The notes beneath the pieces were generated by a model. The model saw only the letters and a list, made by a program, of their open reading frames with translations. It was not told the DNA's origin and did not search any database. Shown here piece by piece: positions 7,304-14,575 of a stretch of DNA of 64,000 nucleotides (its first letter is position 1; each line of letters begins with the position of its first letter). The stretch is taken from sequence record PQ615101, one strand, 5' to 3'. This DNA is from Shigella phage SP21535. The position numbers and the translations under genes were made by a program.

Positions 7304-7376
7304 TGGGAATTAGCCAAGTTGGTAAGGCATAGCACTTTGACTGCTAGATGCAAAGGTTCGAGTCCTTTATTCCCAG
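7304..7376 (+). tRNA. tRNA-Gln (anticodon UUG)
   Basis: Cloverleaf folded by hand: acceptor TGGGAAT/ATTCCCA, anticodon loop cTTTGac, T-arm GGTTCGAGTCC. Confidence 0.8.
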
Positions 7377-7377
7377 C

Positions 7378-7464
7378 GCGAGAATGGTCAAATTGGTAAA
7401 GGCACAGCACTTAAAATGCTGCGGAATGATTTCCTTGTGGGTTCGAGTCCCACTTCTCGTACCA
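7378..7464 (+). tRNA. tRNA-Leu (anticodon UAA), long variable arm, CCA encoded
   Basis: Acceptor GCGAGAA/TTCTCGT, anticodon loop TTAA, T-arm GGTTCGAGTCC, ends ACCA. Confidence 0.75.
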
Positions 7465-7470
7465 AAGTTT

Positions 7471-7542
<72 letters not shown>

Positions 7543-7554
7543 AAATTTAATTTA

Positions 7555-7628
7555 CTCCGTGTAGCTCAGTTTGGTAGAGCGTCTGCTTTGGGAGCAGAAT
7601 GTCGCAGGTTCAAATCCTGCCGCGGAGA
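7555..7628 (+). tRNA. tRNA-Pro (anticodon UGG)
   Basis: Acceptor CTCCGTG/CGCGGAG, anticodon loop tTTGGga, T-arm GCAGGTTCAAATCCTGC. Confidence 0.8.
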
Positions 7629-7630
7629 CT

Positions 7631-7717
7631 GGAGGCGTGGCAGAGTGGTTTAATGCACCGGTCTTGAAAACCGGCAGTCGCTCCGGCGACTCATAGGTTC
7701 GAATCCTATCGCCTCCG
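7631..7717 (+). tRNA. tRNA-Ser (anticodon UGA), long variable arm
   Basis: Acceptor GGAGGCG/CGCCTCC, anticodon stem CCGGT/ACCGG loop CTTGAAA. Confidence 0.8.
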
Positions 7718-7724
7718 TAATTTC

Positions 7725-7797
7725 GCTGATTTAGCTCAGTAGGTAGAGCACCTCACTTGTAATGAGGACGTCGGCGGTTCGATTCCGTCAATCAGCA
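7725..7797 (+). tRNA. tRNA-Thr (anticodon UGU)
   Basis: Acceptor GCTGATT/AATCAGC, anticodon stem CCTCA/TGAGG loop CTTGTAA. Confidence 0.8.
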
Positions 7798-7803
7798 TAT
7801 CAA

Positions 7804-7875
7804 GGCCCTGTAGCTGGAAGGTTCAAGCAAGCGACTCATAATCGCCAGATGGTGGTTCAATTCCACCCAGGGCCA
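7804..7875 (+). tRNA. tRNA-Ile (anticodon CAU, presumably modified to read AUA as in T4)
   Basis: Acceptor GGCCCTG/CAGGGCC, anticodon loop cTCATAa, T-arm GGTTCAATTCC. Confidence 0.75.
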
Positions 7876-7916
7876 TATTTTGGGAACATAAATACTCTTA
7901 GAAATAGGAGATATTT

Positions 7917-8582
7917 ATGTTCCATTACACTTATAAAATAACAAATAAAATTAATAATAAAATTTATATTGGTGTGCATTCTACCGAAAATTTAGATGAT
8001 GGATATATGGGTTCTGGTAAATTATTAAAAAGAGCCCAAGACAAGTATGGTATAGAAAATTTCTCTAAAGAAATATTAGAGTATTTTGATGATAAAGAAT
8101 CTATGCTTGAAGCCGAGAAAAATATTGTCACAGAAGAGTTTTTAAATAGACCAGATGTGTATAATTTAAAACTTGGCGGTGAAGGTGGATGGGACCATAT
8201 AAATATTCCTGGGATGCTAAACCAGAAGAAAGATGCTAGCTTAAAAGGAGCTAAATCGTTTAAATCACGTTTTGAAAATGATATTTTACTTCAAGAAAAA
8301 TATCGTAAAATTGGTTCAAATGTATTTAAACGTTTGTGGTCAACTCCTGAATACAAGGAAAAATTTTTAAATAATAGCAGATTTTTAAATAAGCATCATA
8401 CTCCTGAAACTATTAATAAAATGAAAGAAATTCACGCTAAAAATAATCACCAGAAAGGAGAAAAGAATTCCCAATTTGGTATGATGTGGATTCATTCATT
8501 AGATGAAAAAGTTTCTAAACGTATTAAGAAAACTGACCCAATTCCAGAAGGATGGTTTAAAGGTCGAAAAATGAAATTTTAA
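7917..8582 (+). CDS. segB: GIY-YIG homing endonuclease SegB
   Basis: 221 aa inside the tRNA cluster as in T4; YKITNKINNKIYIGVHSTENLDDGYMGSG GIY-YIG motif. Confidence 0.85.
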   Translation: MFHYTYKITNKINNKIYIGVHSTENLDDGYMGSGKLLKRAQDKYGIENFSKEILEYFDDKESMLEAEKNIVTEEFLNRPDVYNLKLGGEGGWDHINIPGMLNQKKDASLKGAKSFKSRFENDILLQEKYRKIGSNVFKRLWSTPEYKEKFLNNSRFLNKHHTPETINKMKEIHAKNNHQKGEKNSQFGMMWIHSLDEKVSKRIKKTDPIPEGWFKGRKMKF

Positions 8583-8585
8583 TTA

Positions 8586-8662
<77 letters not shown>

Positions 8663-8975
8663 GACAAGAAACCGGGTCGCTACCGGTAAGTCGTCGGACT
8701 GATGTTCCCTGGGTAAGGAATTGCGTTAATAAATCTTTATGATTTGTTGATGCCCTCTTACATCACAGCAGAAACGGCGCACCGAATTATCGATTCGAGG
8801 AAATATCTTTGCCGTAAGCCGAGTAGCGTTTTTGACGGAACGTTCGGATATGGTCGAGATATGGCCTTTTAAAAATATTAAGTAGCGTCAACTGCTTAAT
8901 AACCGGGTTCGAATCCCGGCGTTTCGTACAAACACTTGCCTTAGCAGGTGGAACCCCGACAAGGTTGCCGCAAGG
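8663..8975 (+). ncRNA. structured non-coding region, probably the small stable RNAs that follow the T4 tRNA cluster
   Basis: No ORF; tRNA-like T-arm CCGGGTTCGAATCCCGG; ends at strong terminator; T4 encodes two stable RNAs here. Confidence 0.4.
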
Positions 8976-8980
8976 CTTTA

Positions 8981-9008
8981 GCCCCGACCGAAAGGTTGGG
9001 GCTTTTTG
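8981..9008 (+). terminator. rho-independent terminator (GAAA tetraloop hairpin + T-run)
   Basis: GCCCCGACC-GAAA-GGTTGGGGC followed by TTTTTGG. Confidence 0.8.
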
Positions 9009-9009
9009 G

Positions 9010-9017
9010 TATAAATA
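9010..9017 (+). promoter_or_regulatory. late promoter TATAAATA
   Basis: Exact TATAAATA 40 nt upstream of ATG 9057. Confidence 0.6.
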
Positions 9018-9056
9018 TAGTAGTATATTAAATCACGAATTAAAACAGGAAATAAG

Positions 9057-9515
9057 ATGAAATCATATGCTCAATTTTTAAATGAAGCATCCGCTTCAGA
9101 TGTTCGCGCTGTAGCAACTGCTGCTATTAAAGCTGGTAAATATTCTTATAAAGATGCTTCTGACGAATCTCGGTACAAGTTCTACGACGATATGAGAGCT
9201 GAAGGCTTTGTGGGTAACTATGTTACCACCGCCTGGAAAAGCCTGGTTGCTACTGGTGCGGCTTTCGAAAAACCTTCTGGTAAACCTGCTCCTAAGGCTG
9301 ACCCTAAAGCAGCACAAGAAAAAAATATTGCTAAAGGAATTATTTCTAGGTATGAAGCAATTCTTAAAGAACTTTTGGTAATTAAGACCGAAGGCCAGAA
9401 ACTTGCGCGAGCTCATAGTTTCAAAGATAACCCACATGCTCATGACCTAGAGTATGTTGAAGATCTCCAAAAAATCATCAAAGACCGCATTTGGTCTGCT
9501 AAACAAATTAAATAA
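9057..9515 (+). CDS. internal-protein-like protein with N-terminal capsid targeting sequence
   Basis: 152 aa; N-terminus MKSYAQFLNEA fits the MKTYQEFIAEA targeting motif of T4 internal proteins; late promoter upstream. Confidence 0.6.
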   Translation: MKSYAQFLNEASASDVRAVATAAIKAGKYSYKDASDESRYKFYDDMRAEGFVGNYVTTAWKSLVATGAAFEKPSGKPAPKADPKAAQEKNIAKGIISRYEAILKELLVIKTEGQKLARAHSFKDNPHAHDLEYVEDLQKIIKDRIWSAKQIK

Positions 9516-9523
9516 CATTCTTA

Positions 9524-9549
9524 GCCCCAGCCGAAAGGTTGGGGCTTTT
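9524..9549 (+). terminator. rho-independent terminator, near-duplicate of 8981-9008
   Basis: GCCCCAGCC-GAAA-GGTTGGGGC then TTTTGG. Confidence 0.8.
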
Positions 9550-9656
9550 GGTATCTAGGCCTTTCTGGACCTCTCTAGGCATCATTTAGTTTATACCCTT
9601 TATAATATATTATCCTATCCTTTAATTGCCCATCCCTGCCCTAGAATTCCCTAAAA

Positions 9657-9695
9657 CTTCCCCGTTCTTCCATGGTACTATACAACTATCAACTA
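9657..9695 (+). promoter_or_regulatory. early promoter module, repeated sequence family
   Basis: CTTCCCCGTTCTTCCATGGTACTATACAACTATCAACT; 35 nt of it is identical at 51384-51418; core TGGTACTATACAACTATC also at 20574, 24012, 25934. Confidence 0.55.
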
Positions 9696-9725
9696 CTGAT
9701 ACAGAAAAACAACTTGGAGAATGAA

Positions 9726-9989
9726 ATGGATAATTACGGCGAACTGTTCAACTTCTTTATGAAATGCGTTTCAGAAGATTTCGGTCGTACAGTGAATGAT
9801 ATTAAAGTTATCGGTCCTGATCATCCGATGTTTGAAACTTACGCAGTAATGGGTAATGAAGATGGTCAGTGGTATACTGTAAAGGTTGTGATTAACATGT
9901 TCACTGCTGAAAGTTATGTTAAACTGTCTTCTAAAGTTTACCATGATAACGACGAAATCGCAGAAGAATATTTCAATAATATGAAATAA
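9726..9989 (+). CDS. hypothetical protein
   Basis: Track ORF 9672..9989; likely start ATG 9726 behind GGAGAA, 87 aa. Confidence 0.55.
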   Translation: MDNYGELFNFFMKCVSEDFGRTVNDIKVIGPDHPMFETYAVMGNEDGQWYTVKVVINMFTAESYVKLSSKVYHDNDEIAEEYFNNMK

Positions 9990-10019
9990 GTTTACATAGG
10001 CTCATGATTGAGATATTAT
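9990..10019 (+). promoter_or_regulatory. early promoter with -10 inside a 10-bp inverted repeat
   Basis: GTTTAC .. ATAGGCTCAT gattgaga TATTAT GAGCCTAT. Confidence 0.55.
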
Positions 10020-10044
10020 GAGCCTATAATTTGAGGAAACTGTT

Positions 10045-10575
10045 ATGTCTCTTTATACCGAACTGAATGAAACTTCCGAAAAATCTTTTGATGGTATCTT
10101 ATCAATAATGCAAAAGCAGGTATTAGAACAGCTTAGTGAAGCCGCAAGCAACGGACATAAGGCTTGTCGAATCCCAAGCCCACATCGTCGCCTGTATGAA
10201 CGCCCTCTTATTAATTGGCTAGAAAGCGAAGGTCTTACAGTTAAGATTTGTCCTGCCAAATTTGATGTCCCACGTATTCTTAATATTTACTGGGATAAAC
10301 CGATTGAGAAACCGATTGAGAAAAGTGAACCTTGGGTTGTCAATGTAAAAACATATGATAATGGATGCTCACTTGAGGTGTCTGCTGTAATTAAAGGCAC
10401 TCACGGTGAAAAATCGTGGGGTTGGCCTGGTAAAGATAAAGAAATCGTGTTAAGTGTAAAAGCTACTAGTATTAGTACTCCTATAGCTAAAAGCATTATC
10501 GCCGCCGCTGTTGAAGAAGCTGAACGAATTTGTAAAATTAAAAATAGTTTACATCTCTTAAATAGCATGATATAA
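10045..10575 (+). CDS. hypothetical protein
   Basis: 176 aa; GAGG SD; contains an in-frame 12-bp tandem duplication (KPIEKPIE). Confidence 0.6.
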   Translation: MSLYTELNETSEKSFDGILSIMQKQVLEQLSEAASNGHKACRIPSPHRRLYERPLINWLESEGLTVKICPAKFDVPRILNIYWDKPIEKPIEKSEPWVVNVKTYDNGCSLEVSAVIKGTHGEKSWGWPGKDKEIVLSVKATSISTPIAKSIIAAAVEEAERICKIKNSLHLLNSMI

Positions 10576-10618
10576 TTCTTCCACAGATTTTAATTTTTAA
10601 TCAACCTAAGGAAATACT

Positions 10619-11212
10619 ATGAACACACTGAAGAAAATTGTTGAGTTTATTCGCACTAAACTTGGTTCTGCTATGGCTAAAAATCTATCTGTTGAAGAAC
10701 AGTATACTGCTGCAGCAGCAAAACTGCTTGATAAAATTAAAGATCTAAAAACTGCTTCTGTTAAATCTATTAATGAAGAAAAACGTATTCGTGAACTTGT
10801 TATCGAAAAGAATCGACAAGCCGAATCAAAAGAGCGTGAAATTCGCAAACTTCTTTCCGAAGGTCAAGATGTAACAATGCATGCTAAGCTCGGTTTACTA
10901 TATCGTCGAACAGCTGAGCAGTTGACTACTAAAGCTGATGGTTATGCTGAAATGCGAATTGAAATCGCCAAGAAAGTAGTTGAGTTAGATGATGCTCGTC
11001 AAGAACTTGCAGTTAAATTGGAATATATCCGTGAAACTCGTGCAGCAAATGCCCTTGGAATTAGTACTGCCGATGATGTAGTTGAAATCGCAGCGCTAAC
11101 TAAGGTTGATATTGAAGATACTCTTGCTCGAGTTGAAACCTTTAACGGTAATATTTCCGGGGTTGAAACTACCTCTGCCGATGTTCAGGAATACATTAAT
11201 TCTCTGAAATAA
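10619..11212 (+). CDS. PspA/IM30-like coiled-coil protein
   Basis: 197 aa, AAGGA SD; extended heptad-rich helices, segment [19 protein letters not shown] resembles PspA family. Confidence 0.5.
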
Positions 11213-11217
11213 TGATA

Positions 11218-11233
11218 AGGGGCTTCGGCCCCT
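11218..11233 (+). terminator. UUCG-tetraloop hairpin (terminator or RNA stability element)
   Basis: AGGGGC-TTCG-GCCCCT immediately after stop; weak T-run. Confidence 0.5.
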
Positions 11234-11253
11234 ATTACTTGGAGTAAATAGGA

Positions 11254-11862
11254 ATGAAAATGCAAAGTGATTTCAATTCAATGTTTGAAGAGTTCCAAAG
11301 ACAGGTTGATGTTCCAGACCAATTACTAAATGCTCTTAAACGTATGGCAGAAGGACGTAATTACTATTGGGGGTCTTCATATGAAACTGATGAAAGTCTT
11401 TCTGGAAGATTTTCTAGAGGTAAAAAGTCTTTAATACGTCCTGGAATACTCATTAAAAGTATTGAATCAATTCATTCATTGACGTGTGATTTTGATGTTG
11501 AATTTACTGATTTCATTTCTCCTGAATGGACGGTTTGTTATTTAAATGACGATTATGATTATCTTGGCGTTTATAGTTTAAGTGACGCATGGTTTAAACG
11601 TAATTTACAAAAGTCAAATTTGTTCTATATTGATACTACGGTAAAATTTCAGGGAAAGAAATATTTCTTTACTCTTATAGTTGATTCTGAAACAAAGCAT
11701 GAAAATAAACGTATTCTTAGTAAAAAGAATATCTTAACTATTGTTGATGATCTTTTTGATAAATTCGTGGAAAATCCTAATTTTGAAAGCGATTTATTAT
11801 TAGAAAAATTTGTTAAGGAATGTAGAGAATATGTCAAAGCCATCACTATACCTTCCAAGTAA
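11254..11862 (+). CDS. hypothetical protein; C-terminus FVKECREY motif
   Basis: 202 aa; first of four consecutive ORFs ending with F-x-x-(E/D/S)-(C/R)-(R/C)-(K/E). Confidence 0.6.
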   Translation: MKMQSDFNSMFEEFQRQVDVPDQLLNALKRMAEGRNYYWGSSYETDESLSGRFSRGKKSLIRPGILIKSIESIHSLTCDFDVEFTDFISPEWTVCYLNDDYDYLGVYSLSDAWFKRNLQKSNLFYIDTTVKFQGKKYFFTLIVDSETKHENKRILSKKNILTIVDDLFDKFVENPNFESDLLLEKFVKECREYVKAITIPSK

Positions 11863-12223
11863 ACCTGTGAAGTATGAACCAAAGCGTCAGCTAATTTCTA
11901 CTGATGTATTAATAGGTCCTGTTATACTCATATCATTTGTAATTCTATTGATTATTGGAGGTGTTTTAGATGTTATGACTGATATTGATTCTGGCGAAAT
12001 ACTTGTATTAATGCTAATTCTTCCATTAATAGTTCCATTTTTATTAGTACCTGTAAATTGGGTAGGATACTGGTATCAAGGAAGGCATTATCGTAAACGC
12101 GTACGTGATTGGAAAGCACAGTGTAAAAAGATTAAAAAGGAATATCAGCTTAAACTTGCTGCGTATGAATTTGATGAAATTATGAAATTTGTTAAGGAAT
12201 CACGATGCAAAAGCCAAAACTAA
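11831..12223 (+). CDS. membrane protein, paralogue family
   Basis: Track ORF 11810..12223 (TTG); ATG 11831; two TM helices; C-terminus FVKESRCK. Confidence 0.55.
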   Translation: MSKPSLYLPSKPVKYEPKRQLISTDVLIGPVILISFVILLIIGGVLDVMTDIDSGEILVLMLILPLIVPFLLVPVNWVGYWYQGRHYRKRVRDWKAQCKKIKKEYQLKLAAYEFDEIMKFVKESRCKSQN

Positions 12224-12570
12224 ATAAAGTCAAATATTCGCTTCCTGAGTCATTTTTAATTTTTGCTGTGGCGTTGGCTGCAGCTCTTGCGGGTAGTCTT
12301 TTTGGATTGTTAATTGACGACTGTTTTATTTTAAACATCGATGGCACAGTAAATATAATAGAAGTTTGGAGTGAACTTCGCTATACTAAAATTATTTCAT
12401 TATTTTCATTCTTTTGTATCATTCTATATTTTCATTATGATAATTTTAAAATAAATTGGCAAAGAAAAAAGGATTACAAAATACAATTAAAAGAATATAA
12501 TAGCTACATGTCTTATATTGAAAATGAATCAATGAAAGAGTTTGTGAGTGATTGTAGGAAAATCAGATGA
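12205..12570 (+). CDS. membrane protein, paralogue family
   Basis: 121 aa, TM helices, C-terminus FVSDCRKIR. Confidence 0.55.
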   Translation: MQKPKLNKVKYSLPESFLIFAVALAAALAGSLFGLLIDDCFILNIDGTVNIIEVWSELRYTKIISLFSFFCIILYFHYDNFKINWQRKKDYKIQLKEYNSYMSYIENESMKEFVSDCRKIR

Positions 12571-13055
12571 TTTTAAAAACTCGCTGGTATGATTTAGATG
12601 ATGGGGATGATGGCATTCCAGTTGATAGAGTTGACTGGAATGGCTGTTCCGAAGATATGAAAAATTTGCTGATTAGGGAGTTTAGAATGGGATATCAACC
12701 AGTTAAGCCATCTACTGCAACAGATGATAAATTCGTATGTATTCATAATGGTCGCGCTAAATTAACGAACGCTGATTGGTTCACAGATAAAATTATGATT
12801 CTGTGGTATATTATTAGTCTTCCTGTGACATCATTCGTATTTTACTTTTTTATAAAAAATCCAATGGACAGAATAGGAGATTGGATTCTTTTAACCATAC
12901 TTGTTAATATTTTTACAGCAGCAATATTATCTGGGATATGGTACACGTTCATTGAAATGCCATGGCGGCTACGCAGACAACAAAAGATTTTTGATGAAAA
13001 GAAATATACTCAAAATTTAAATAACTTTATCACTGAATGCAGGAAATTAAAATGA
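12567..13055 (+). CDS. membrane protein, paralogue family
   Basis: 162 aa, TM helices, C-terminus FITECRKLK. Confidence 0.55.
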   Translation: MILKTRWYDLDDGDDGIPVDRVDWNGCSEDMKNLLIREFRMGYQPVKPSTATDDKFVCIHNGRAKLTNADWFTDKIMILWYIISLPVTSFVFYFFIKNPMDRIGDWILLTILVNIFTAAILSGIWYTFIEMPWRLRRQQKIFDEKKYTQNLNNFITECRKLK

Positions 13056-13492
13056 AAACACTATCAGCTGGTATTATCTTTATGACAGAAGATAAAGATT
13101 TATTCATGGGACGGGTTACTGGTTCTCGTAAGCCTGGAATGATGGCACATCGCTGGGATATCCCAAAGGGCCGCGTAGAAAATTCTGATTTAAGCGCACT
13201 AGATGCAGCACGAAGAGAATGTTTAGAAGAGACTGGTTTTAGCAATTATAATCCAGACCTTCTAGAAGACCTAGGTGTATTTAAATATTCTAGTAATAAA
13301 GACTTACAGTTATTTTATTATACGATTCCAGTAGAGCATGAGATGTTTAGAAATTGCCATTGCGAGTCTTATTTTGAAAATAAAGATGGCGTTATGATTC
13401 CAGAGATGGACGCTTTTGCTCTTATTCCTCGTACTCAGTGGCAATATGTGATGGGTCCTTCACTTTACCGAATAATGAACAACCTCTTTTAA
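13052..13492 (+). CDS. nudE: Nudix hydrolase NudE
   Basis: Nudix box GRVENSDLSALDAARRECLEETGF; track ORF 13037..13492, ATG 13052 has the better SD. Confidence 0.85.
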   Translation: MKTLSAGIIFMTEDKDLFMGRVTGSRKPGMMAHRWDIPKGRVENSDLSALDAARRECLEETGFSNYNPDLLEDLGVFKYSSNKDLQLFYYTIPVEHEMFRNCHCESYFENKDGVMIPEMDAFALIPRTQWQYVMGPSLYRIMNNLF

Positions 13493-14023
<531 letters not shown>

Positions 14024-14027
14024 AGTT

Positions 14028-14057
14028 GTTTACTTTCTCCTAGAACTGTGATAGTAT
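14028..14057 (+). promoter_or_regulatory. early promoter with -10 inside inverted repeat
   Basis: GTTTAC..AACTGTGA TAGTATAT TCACAGTT. Confidence 0.55.
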
Positions 14058-14100
14058 ATTCACAGTTACTAATTAAAATATTTACATTTAAAGGAAACAT

Positions 14101-14575
14101 ATGAAAACATATCAAGAATTTATTACTGAAGCAGCTATTAATTCTCAAAATTATTGCTGAATCTTTTACTGATCTTTTGAAATTTAAAAAAGGACAGAAA
14201 ATTACTGCTGTATTAGATGATGGTACAGAAGTTGAGATGGATGTACAGGGATATAATTATGCAGTAGATGGAAAACTGTATAATAAATCTCATGCTAAAT
14301 TTGATTCATTTGATGATTTTGTTAATACAGTTGAAGATGAAAAAACTCGTCGATCCATTGCAACTGGTGATGCTAAGGTTCTTATGGCGCATGGACATGA
14401 ACGTATTCGCGCTAAACAGAATAAAATGGGTGAAGATAATTTCGCATTAGTTGGTTATCAATCTGGTAAACAAACTTATGGTTATCAGCGTACTGCTACC
14501 ATGTATAATAAAAATGGTAAAATCGCTTTCGTGAATAGTAAAGGTTCTATTCAGTACGTTAAATCGTTCAAATAA
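14101..14575 (+). pseudogene. internal-protein-like gene (MKTYQEFITEA targeting motif) interrupted by a frameshift
   Basis: ATG frame stops after 19 codons (..AINSQNYC*); downstream 132-aa frame is open from 14105 but has no ATG; shift maps near A4 run 14147-14150. Confidence 0.5.

Follow-up and report, generated by a model that had tools for sequence, protein, structure and literature searches.

The e.6 locus and its expression

The 64,000-nt stretch of DNA analysed here (the window) comes from Shigella phage SP21535 (record PQ615101), a T4-type phage (Tequatrovirus). A preliminary description of this DNA had singled out an open reading frame (ORF) of 197 amino acids (aa) at 10619..11212 and proposed that it encodes a PspA/IM30-like protein. 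The ORF exists as described: it is the plus-strand coding sequence of T4 gene e.6, which opens with an ATG at 10619 and closes with a TAA that ends at 11212. Its product is very probably a divergent homologue of the bacterial membrane-repair proteins PspA/IM30/Vipp1, which form the prokaryotic branch of the membrane-remodelling ESCRT-III superfamily. The protein shares 98.5% of its amino acids with T4 e.6 and is 100% identical to its counterparts in several Tequatrovirus genomes, and the 4.6 kb around the ORF match many T4-like genomes of Escherichia and Shigella at 94–96% identity. By tblastn, e.6 is present in 1099 of 50,697 phage records. The soluble 22-kDa product contains no Pro, Cys or Trp residue and falls in PHROG 1203 (E 1.6e-87), a family labelled 'unknown function'.

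T4's own record calls e.6 a 'conserved hypothetical protein'. Many GenBank and UniRef records of e.6 homologues carry the name 'host specificity protein', and one carries 'tail completion protein'. We reject both names as propagated mis-annotations, since neither family, nor genomic context, nor expression supports them.

A sigma-70-type promoter-like site of the T4 early type, with an extended –10 TG, lies at 10548..10576 on the plus strand, about 43 nt before the start codon (TTTACA-17 nt-TGaTATAAT). It matches the consensus at 11 of 12 positions and is the best promoter match within 8500..14200, judged by consensus match alone. The T4 counterpart (GTTTACA-17-TGaTATTAT) stands at the same distance from e.6 despite a different upstream gene. 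The ribosome-binding site AAGGAAA (10608..10614, plus strand) is located 4 nt before the ATG and is identical in T4. Also identical in T4 is the hairpin AGGGGCTTCGGCCCCT, which has a CTTCGG tetraloop and is found on the plus strand directly past the stop codon (11218..11233). In two related genomes this 3' hairpin of e.6 is annotated as a 'terminator'. However, no T-run stands behind the GGGGCTTCGGCCCC hairpin at 11218..11233 on the plus strand, and for this reason a role in protecting the RNA 3' end, or as a hairpin between cistrons, is more likely than one in classical termination.

In T4, the e.6 RNA is classed as early, and the protein was seen by mass spectrometry with 'middle' kinetics (PMC9697503 supplements). 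The T4 data therefore establish e.6 as a real, expressed gene. They also agree, together with the early-type sigma-70 promoter, with the earlier suggestion that the gene is expressed early. A minus-strand ORF at 10606..10848 (80 aa, TTG start) was rejected, as it is unsupported and lies inside the strongly conserved, expressed plus-strand gene.

Homology of e.6 to PspA and Vipp1

We searched with e.6 profiles of two depths: one of 30 sequences (A1) and an extended alignment of 52 sequences with identity down to 18% (A2). With the smaller profile, Vipp1 matches among PDB sequences were non-significant (E 1.8–4.4). With the extended one, hmmsearch against 177,635 distinct PDB sequences returned Synechocystis Vipp1 in first place (E 6.2e-5, 25.9 bits, residues 1–146 versus 1–147), and eight of the nine best matches were chains of the Vipp1/PspA family.

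For profile–profile comparison we assembled a PspA/Vipp1 profile of seven sequences (A4): PspA of E. coli, Pluralibacter and Cronobacter, Synechocystis Vipp1, an actinobacterial plasmid PspA and two PspA-like proteins from fecal phage contigs. PspA homologue searches and a genome-contig scan had given only enterobacterial PspA at ≥82% identity; tblastn against plasmids added the actinobacterial sequence, and tblastn against phages added the two metagenomic ones. Alignment of the extended e.6 profile with this set by hhalign reached a probability of 92.8% (E 4e-7) over 197 aligned columns (4–206 versus 1–219) and was collinear end to end. An earlier hhalign run against a near-identical PspA set had been weak (33% probability, N-terminal 59 columns only). 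Because coiled coils can match spuriously, we repeated the comparison with reversed profiles and with seven-column block shuffles, controls that keep composition and heptad character. The real alignment scored 50.5, compared to 19.9 for the reversed PspA/Vipp1 profile, 20.3 for the reversed e.6 profile and 14.5 ± 2.2 (maximum 22.2) for 30 block shuffles.

Individual family members were also scanned against Pfam. Five of the 52 sequences in the extended alignment match PF04012 (PspA_IM30), and two of these, P0186 (39.0 bits) and P0185 (35.1 bits), are above the gathering score of 33.9, with residues 6–146 aligned to profile positions 2–143. Both are Ackermannviridae-type e.6 proteins that match the e.6 profile over their full length (E about 1e-20). 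The e.6-like protein of Kuttervirus FEC14 (Ackermannviridae), a 78%-identical relative of P0186, is linked to the window protein by BLASTP (E 7e-13, 194 residues). Against the NCBIfam LiaH model P0186 scores 16.5 bits (cut-off 380), yet the alignment is in register (7–137 versus 3–134).

A genome announcement of 2021 on Klebsiella phage Metamorpho reports a 99.9% HHpred match of its e.6 homologue to E. coli PspA 4WHE (PMC7862958). The PspA resemblance of e.6 is thus already in print once, and the kind of claim made here is not new.

Structure prediction gave a consistent picture. Two AlphaFold2 (AF2) runs, on 30 and 52 sequences, reached a predicted local distance difference test score (pLDDT) of 74.8 and 79.1, respectively, and agree on the helices; 79% of residues are helical. 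The N-terminal helix α0 (residues 3–22, 10625..10684, low pLDDT) is predicted to be cationic and amphipathic and is a putative membrane-binding element. It is followed by the two arms of a long hairpin: α1 (residues 25–80, 10691..10858, pLDDT 85–97), which aligns with α1 of PspA/Vipp1, and α2/3 (residues 86–145, 10874..11053, pLDDT 85–93). A flexible linker with short helices at 151–159 and 166–173 comes next (the α4 region, residues 151–173, 11069..11137, lower pLDDT), and the chain closes with the C-terminal helix α5 (residues 186–196, 11174..11206, moderate confidence). All these coordinates are on the plus strand. The order of a long α1–α2/3 hairpin, then α4, then α5 is ESCRT-III-like, and the predicted order of elements equals that of PspA and Vipp1 (structures 4WHE, 7O3W and 6ZVR). 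The preliminary description had called the protein almost entirely heptad-rich helix. The helical part of this statement agrees with the model, whereas the heptad part is valid for the first arm alone: hydrophobic periodicity of ∼3.5 residues is above shuffles for residues 25–80 (p ∼0.02) but not for residues 86–145 (p ∼0.3).

The most conserved motifs of the two families coincide. Helix α2/3 opens with H-A-K-L-x-L-L-Y-R-R, the most conserved motif of the e.6 family, and hhalign overlays its H-A-K-L-x-L-L on the L-A-R-x-A-L of PspA/Vipp1. The conserved A89, K90, L91 and L93 of e.6 stand opposite the 'LAReAL' of PspA/Vipp1 (A87, R88 and L91 of E. coli PspA). At the C-terminus, D-V-x-x-Y-L-x-S-L-K, the end of α5 (with a Y(L/I) variant within the e.6 family), is overlaid on E-L-A-x-L-K-A; Y192 is conserved in 94% and L196 in 87% of the family. 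In addition, G147 is nearly invariant, and a Gly-containing linker precedes the helices of the α4 region.

Foldseek comparison of the e.6 model with the PDB placed Vipp1 at positions 1–8 (best E 1.9e-3, probability 1.0); the archaeal ESCRT-III protein CdvB2 came next, and PspA 7ABK lower. In BFVD, a set of viral predicted structures, the e.6 relatives are followed by first matches that include an Snf7 protein from Megaviridae and, from Acinetobacter phage ME3, the protein annotated as PspA/IM30. The combination of a three-helix crescent dimer and a BAR-family sequence match, which would identify a BAR domain, was not found for e.6.

The preliminary description had given, as an example in support of its family call, the resemblance of one e.6 segment to the DDTLAR string of PspA. 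Both strings are present in the respective proteins, but they are not in homologous register by either BLASTP or hhalign. The e.6 segment is at residues 164–173 (nt 11108..11137), and DDTLAR occupies residues 111–116 of E. coli PspA. Both methods pair the e.6 segment with the α4 region of PspA (∼159–184), and its BLASTP partner is LDEAMARFESF (PspA residues 161–171). Since the segment aligns with α4 and not with 111–116, the string resemblance is coincidental and we reject the equivalence, though the family call itself is right.

Several observations weigh against homology. The window protein itself has no PF04012 match at E ≤ 10 (hmmscan versus Pfam, gathering threshold 33.9 bits), no phmmer match among PDB sequences and no match to the NCBIfam PspA or LiaH equivalogs. 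Identity of e.6 to PspA is about 12–24% (BLASTP, hhalign). The 'EDPxK' motif, located between α0 and α1 in PspA, is not kept in the e.6 family. The PspA/Vipp1 profile used for hhalign is shallow (effective number of sequences, Neff, 2.8), and in Foldseek no Vipp1 match has an E-value better than a modest 1.9e-3. The preliminary description had named the lack of a significant PspA-family profile hit as the result that would refute its call, and for the window protein this is formally what the Pfam scan returned. A criterion that relies on a single protein and Pfam is too weak, however, and would have led us to discard a correct idea.

A profile search of 1.84 billion cluster representatives returned only 45 clusters (50% identity), all of ∼200 aa and none a bona fide PspA; e.6 therefore constitutes an isolated family. 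Overall, profile and fold comparison lead us to conclude, with high confidence, that e.6 truly belongs to the PspA/IM30/Vipp1 branch of the ESCRT-III superfamily, as a very divergent member, and that as a single sequence it falls below the Pfam threshold. The family call of the preliminary description is upheld in the form of distant homology, by the profiles, the fold, the two homologues above the PF04012 gathering score and the published HHpred match.

Proposed function of e.6

Helix α0 is patterned alike throughout the e.6 family. Across the 52 members of the extended alignment, positions 4, 7, 8, 10, 11, 15, 18 and 19 are hydrophobic in at least 85% of sequences, and positions 5, 6, 12, 14 and 21 are predominantly Lys/Arg. 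In the window protein, α0 has a net charge of +4 and a hydrophobic moment of 0.36–0.45 (versus 0.40 for PspA), and it is residue-for-residue in register with α0 of PspA/Vipp1 (hhalign, hmmsearch). At the level of sequence pattern, α0 would qualify as an amphipathic membrane-binding helix. No transmembrane (TM) segment was found in e.6 by hydrophobicity scan (maximum Kyte–Doolittle value, KD, 1.05).

The account that we favour, and regard as probable, is that e.6 is an early-made PspA/Vipp1 homologue that keeps the stressed inner membrane tight. On the narrower point of membrane binding and stabilisation as the function of e.6, assigned by analogy, we consider the case for and against to be evenly balanced. 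The function of PspA in inner-membrane sealing is cited in PMC12795941. In the proposed mechanism, e.6 would be transcribed off its own early promoter in the first minutes of infection, and the protein would attach by α0 to the inner membrane from the cytoplasmic side. There it could self-assemble like PspA/Vipp1, via hairpin and α5 contacts, into a polymer that covers the membrane, curbs ion and proton leakage and sustains the proton-motive force. The membrane would at that time be stressed by the passage of the tail tube, by superinfection, by phage proteins that insert into it and by long lysis inhibition; host abortive-infection effectors aimed at the membrane may add to this.

T4 shuts off host transcription early. 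The sigma-54/PspF-dependent psp operon should consequently be poorly inducible, which we infer to be the reason why the phage carries its own PspA analogue, one that would act independently of PspF and PspBC. The host psp operon is weakly induced by T4 and strongly by PhiX174 (PMC12795941).

Other data argue against a membrane-maintaining role. T4 e.6 is scored 'Not Fit' in CRISPRi-ART (PMC11879866 supplement) and 'Non-essential', with 43 of 43 insertions, in HIDEN-SEQ (10.1101/2025.11.20.689424 supplement). The gene is thus dispensable on laboratory hosts, and any membrane role must therefore be redundant or conditional. The pLDDT of α0 is low, and its hydrophobic moment is not significantly above that of shuffles (fraction 0.16; 0.07 for PspA's own α0), in a test that has little power on such short segments. 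There are no pspB-, pspC- or pspF-type genes near e.6, the neighbours all being phage genes. In the literature that we searched, we found no experiments that addressed membrane binding or polymerisation by e.6 or its effect on the proton-motive force. Likewise, searches on PspA, ESCRT-III and phage-encoded proteins, and on e.6 as a core gene of T4-like phages, returned nothing relevant. A paper that connects pspA to phage tolerance (PMC12234005, eLife) deals with a host gain-of-function allele and capsule loss and has no bearing on e.6.

Genomic context of e.6

Gene order around e.6 is as in T4: a tRNA cluster with segB, e.8, a gene at the e.7 position, e.6, e.5 to e.2, nudE and e. The tRNA cluster (7304..8662) comprises eight genes (Gln, Leu, Gly, Pro, Ser, Thr, Met-type CAT and Arg), and a SegB-like GIY-YIG homing endonuclease gene (7917..8582) parts the last of them from the other seven, as in T4. 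At the far end of the block are the Nudix hydrolase gene nudE (13037..13492) and the lysozyme gene e (13529..14023).

The genes that directly follow e.6 share unusual C-termini. The product of e.5 (11254..11862) is soluble and has the C-terminus ..KFVKECREY... Two strongly hydrophobic segments are found in each of e.4 (11810..12223), with a variant tail ..KFVKESRCK.., and e.2 (12567..13055), which ends in ..NFITECRKLK. The product of e.3 (12205..12570), ending in ..EFVSDCRKIR, has one strongly hydrophobic segment by scan and a second by eye. A basic C-terminal tail is present in each of e.4, e.3 and e.2, and the three look like paralogous membrane proteins with approximately two TM segments and basic cytoplasmic tails (e.3–e.4 BLASTP E 0.006). 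Within the last 30 residues, the pattern F[IV]xxC[RK] occurs in only 4 of the 183 ORFs in the window with 60 aa or more (0.05 expected), three of them being e.5, e.3 and e.2. This tail may serve as a docking peptide through which these proteins bind one and the same partner, which could conceivably be e.6.

The same tail motif is carried by the gene that follows e.6 in distant Straboviridae, which encodes a protein of ∼200–245 aa: ..DFIKECRYEL.. in Aeromonas phage 65 (L088:4628-5362), ..DFINYCRGQI.. in Enterobacter phage SonariX (L089:4653-5318) and ..KFIHSCKKNV.. in RB43 (L087:4780-5397). The proteins of Aeromonas phage 65 and SonariX match phrog_13418 weakly (E 1.6e-4 and 5.9e-5, respectively), as does e.5 of the window (E 1.7e-3). 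Given the common tail and these weak matches, the succession of e.6 and e.5 appears to be conserved. In Ackermannviridae (FEC14 and Serratia 3M), the gene after e.6 is unrelated to e.5; that of FEC14 encodes an N-terminally anchored membrane protein.

Other neighbours vary. The gene at the e.7 position (10045..10575) encodes 176 aa here versus 111 aa in T4, T4 has unrelated DNA ahead of the e.6 promoter, and e.2 encodes 162 aa versus 102 aa in T4. Accessory genes have been swapped on either side of e.6, whose promoter, coding sequence and hairpin form a conserved cassette.

Further upstream, two near-identical strong terminator-like hairpins (8980..9003 and 9523..9546), AGCCCC(G/A)(A/G)CCGAAAGGTTGGGGCT followed by a T-run, flank an ORF of 152 aa (9057..9515) that has no Pfam match. 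The pair looks like a repeated terminator cassette around an inserted gene, downstream of the tRNA/rnaC–rnaD region.

In the RefSeq record of RB43 (NC_007023), e.6 is annotated as a protein of 97 aa (L087:4001-4447), and tblastn aligns residues 52–197 there. A later RB43 record (HE858210.2) matches e.6 over nearly its full length; the short annotation may reflect an error in the older record, either of sequencing or through a frameshift.

An extended version of the proposed function would make e.6 the core of a phage Psp-like membrane-maintenance module. Here e.2, e.3, e.4 and e.5 would recruit e.6 to the inner membrane or nucleate its polymer there via their common cytoplasmic F[IV]xxC[RK] tails, in the way that PspB/PspC recruit PspA. 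Such a module might explain the classical early 'sealing' of the membrane in T4-infected cells after ion leakage caused by injection, or might guard the cell against depolarising abortive-infection systems or superinfecting ghosts. We present this extension as a speculation with little chance of being right in full.

Alternative explanations

The main rival reading, which we think less likely, is that e.6 derives from PspA and has taken on a new role as a regulator, decoy, scaffold or anti-defence factor, in place of membrane repair. It could bind PspF or PspB/PspC and so manipulate the Psp response of the host, neutralise a membrane-targeting abortive-infection effector, or scaffold e.2–e.4 and e.5. 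Such a change of role would be consistent with the extreme divergence from cellular PspA and the loss of EDPxK, with the position of e.6 within a block of small accessory genes, and with its dispensability on laboratory hosts, which is typical of host-range and counter-defence genes. The tail motif common to e.5, e.3 and e.2, as a possible docking peptide, also speaks for it, as does the pair of e.6 and an e.5-like gene kept in the T4 type, Aeromonas phage 65 and SonariX. However, the e.5-type neighbour is missing in Ackermannviridae, which retain e.6, and no PADLOC or anti-defence family match was obtained for e.6. Regulation of the sigma-54 psp operon would bring little gain because T4 shuts host transcription early. 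Moreover, the elements conserved across the e.6 family are those of the PspA effector: the amphipathic α0, the hairpin and the C-terminal helix.

A generic coiled coil, resembling PspA/Vipp1 through helical composition and heptad bias and not through common descent, could account for the missing direct Pfam match of the window protein, and single family members do match many coiled-coil families weakly, including SMC, CCDC90 and BAR_3. This explanation is largely refuted by the controls that preserve composition and periodicity, which scored 14–22 where the real alignment scored 50.5. Collinearity from residue 1 to the C-terminus, with coinciding helix breaks and conserved motifs, the leading place of Vipp1 among 177,635 PDB sequences (E 6e-5), the two members that pass the curated PF04012 threshold and the independent HHpred match of 99.9% (PMC7862958) likewise go beyond what helical composition would produce, and we consider a chance resemblance very improbable. 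A role of e.6 in the virion or in host range, suggested by the names in some GenBank/UniRef records, is hardly credible, given the 'unknown function' label of PHROG 1203, the lack of a Pfam structural-protein match, an early promoter and early RNA unlike those of late structural genes, a location in an early accessory block and not in the tail module, and a predicted fold of the PspA-type helical hairpin.

T4 is the best-studied lytic phage, and about half of its genes are without an assigned function. Of these genes, e.6 ranks with the more widely conserved, being found in more than 1000 sequenced genomes of Straboviridae and Ackermannviridae. If e.6 is indeed a working protein of the PspA/ESCRT-III type, large lytic phages would bring their own machinery for membrane repair or remodelling and would not rely on a host response that they switch off. 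This would bear on three long-standing physiological puzzles, namely on resealing after DNA injection, on tolerance of superinfection and ghosts, and on how the cell remains energised during lysis inhibition, as well as on phage resistance to membrane-depolarising defence systems. A compact viral branch of 197 aa would also join the ESCRT-III superfamily and could help structural work.

Comparison with known systems

The best match of e.6 in both profile and Foldseek searches is Vipp1/IM30 (Synechocystis sll0617, 7O3W/8QFV; Nostoc 6ZVR). The two have in common the order of α0, the α1–α2/3 hairpin, a Gly loop, α4 and α5, the hydrophobic register of α0 and an A(K/R)xxL that opens α2. Unlike Vipp1, e.6 has 197 aa and not about 267, is without the α6 C-terminal extension and without EDPxK, and is only about 15–17% identical. 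It is carried by a lytic phage of enterobacteria, hosts that have no thylakoids.

With E. coli PspA (4WHE; PF04012), e.6 shares the superfamily, a similar size (197 versus 222 aa) and an hhalign alignment that is collinear end to end. By analogy, the two are presumed to have a common effector activity, the binding and sealing of a leaky inner membrane. In contrast to pspA, e.6 has no pspBCDE/pspF neighbours and is preceded by a sigma-70 early phage promoter and not by a sigma-54/PspF-dependent one. It is unlikely that e.6 has kept the PspF-regulatory role of PspA.

For ESCRT-III proper (Snf7/CHMP, archaeal CdvB; PF03357), Pfam scans of e.6 and its family gave no sequence-level signal, scores are weaker than those to Vipp1, and no Vps4-type partner or MIM motif is evident.

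Phage-borne members of the superfamily are also found elsewhere. With Foldseek, the e.6 model retrieves the PspA/IM30 protein of Acinetobacter phage vB_AbaM_ME3 (E 1.7e-2). Two fecal 'Bacteriophage sp.' contigs, both unverified and unannotated metagenomic records, encode ordinary PspA/IM30 proteins: one of 225 aa in MT835668 (L083:3001-3675) and one of 227 aa in MT839532 (L084:301-981). These are 28–31% identical to E. coli PspA, and the human-faecal contigs are either phages with classical PspA genes or bacterial DNA. A simple BLAST or Pfam search is enough to recognise the proteins of ME3 and of the two contigs, which look as if they had been acquired from bacteria recently. Unlike them, e.6 is an old, separate and phage-only lineage (PHROG 1203) that extends across Straboviridae and Ackermannviridae.

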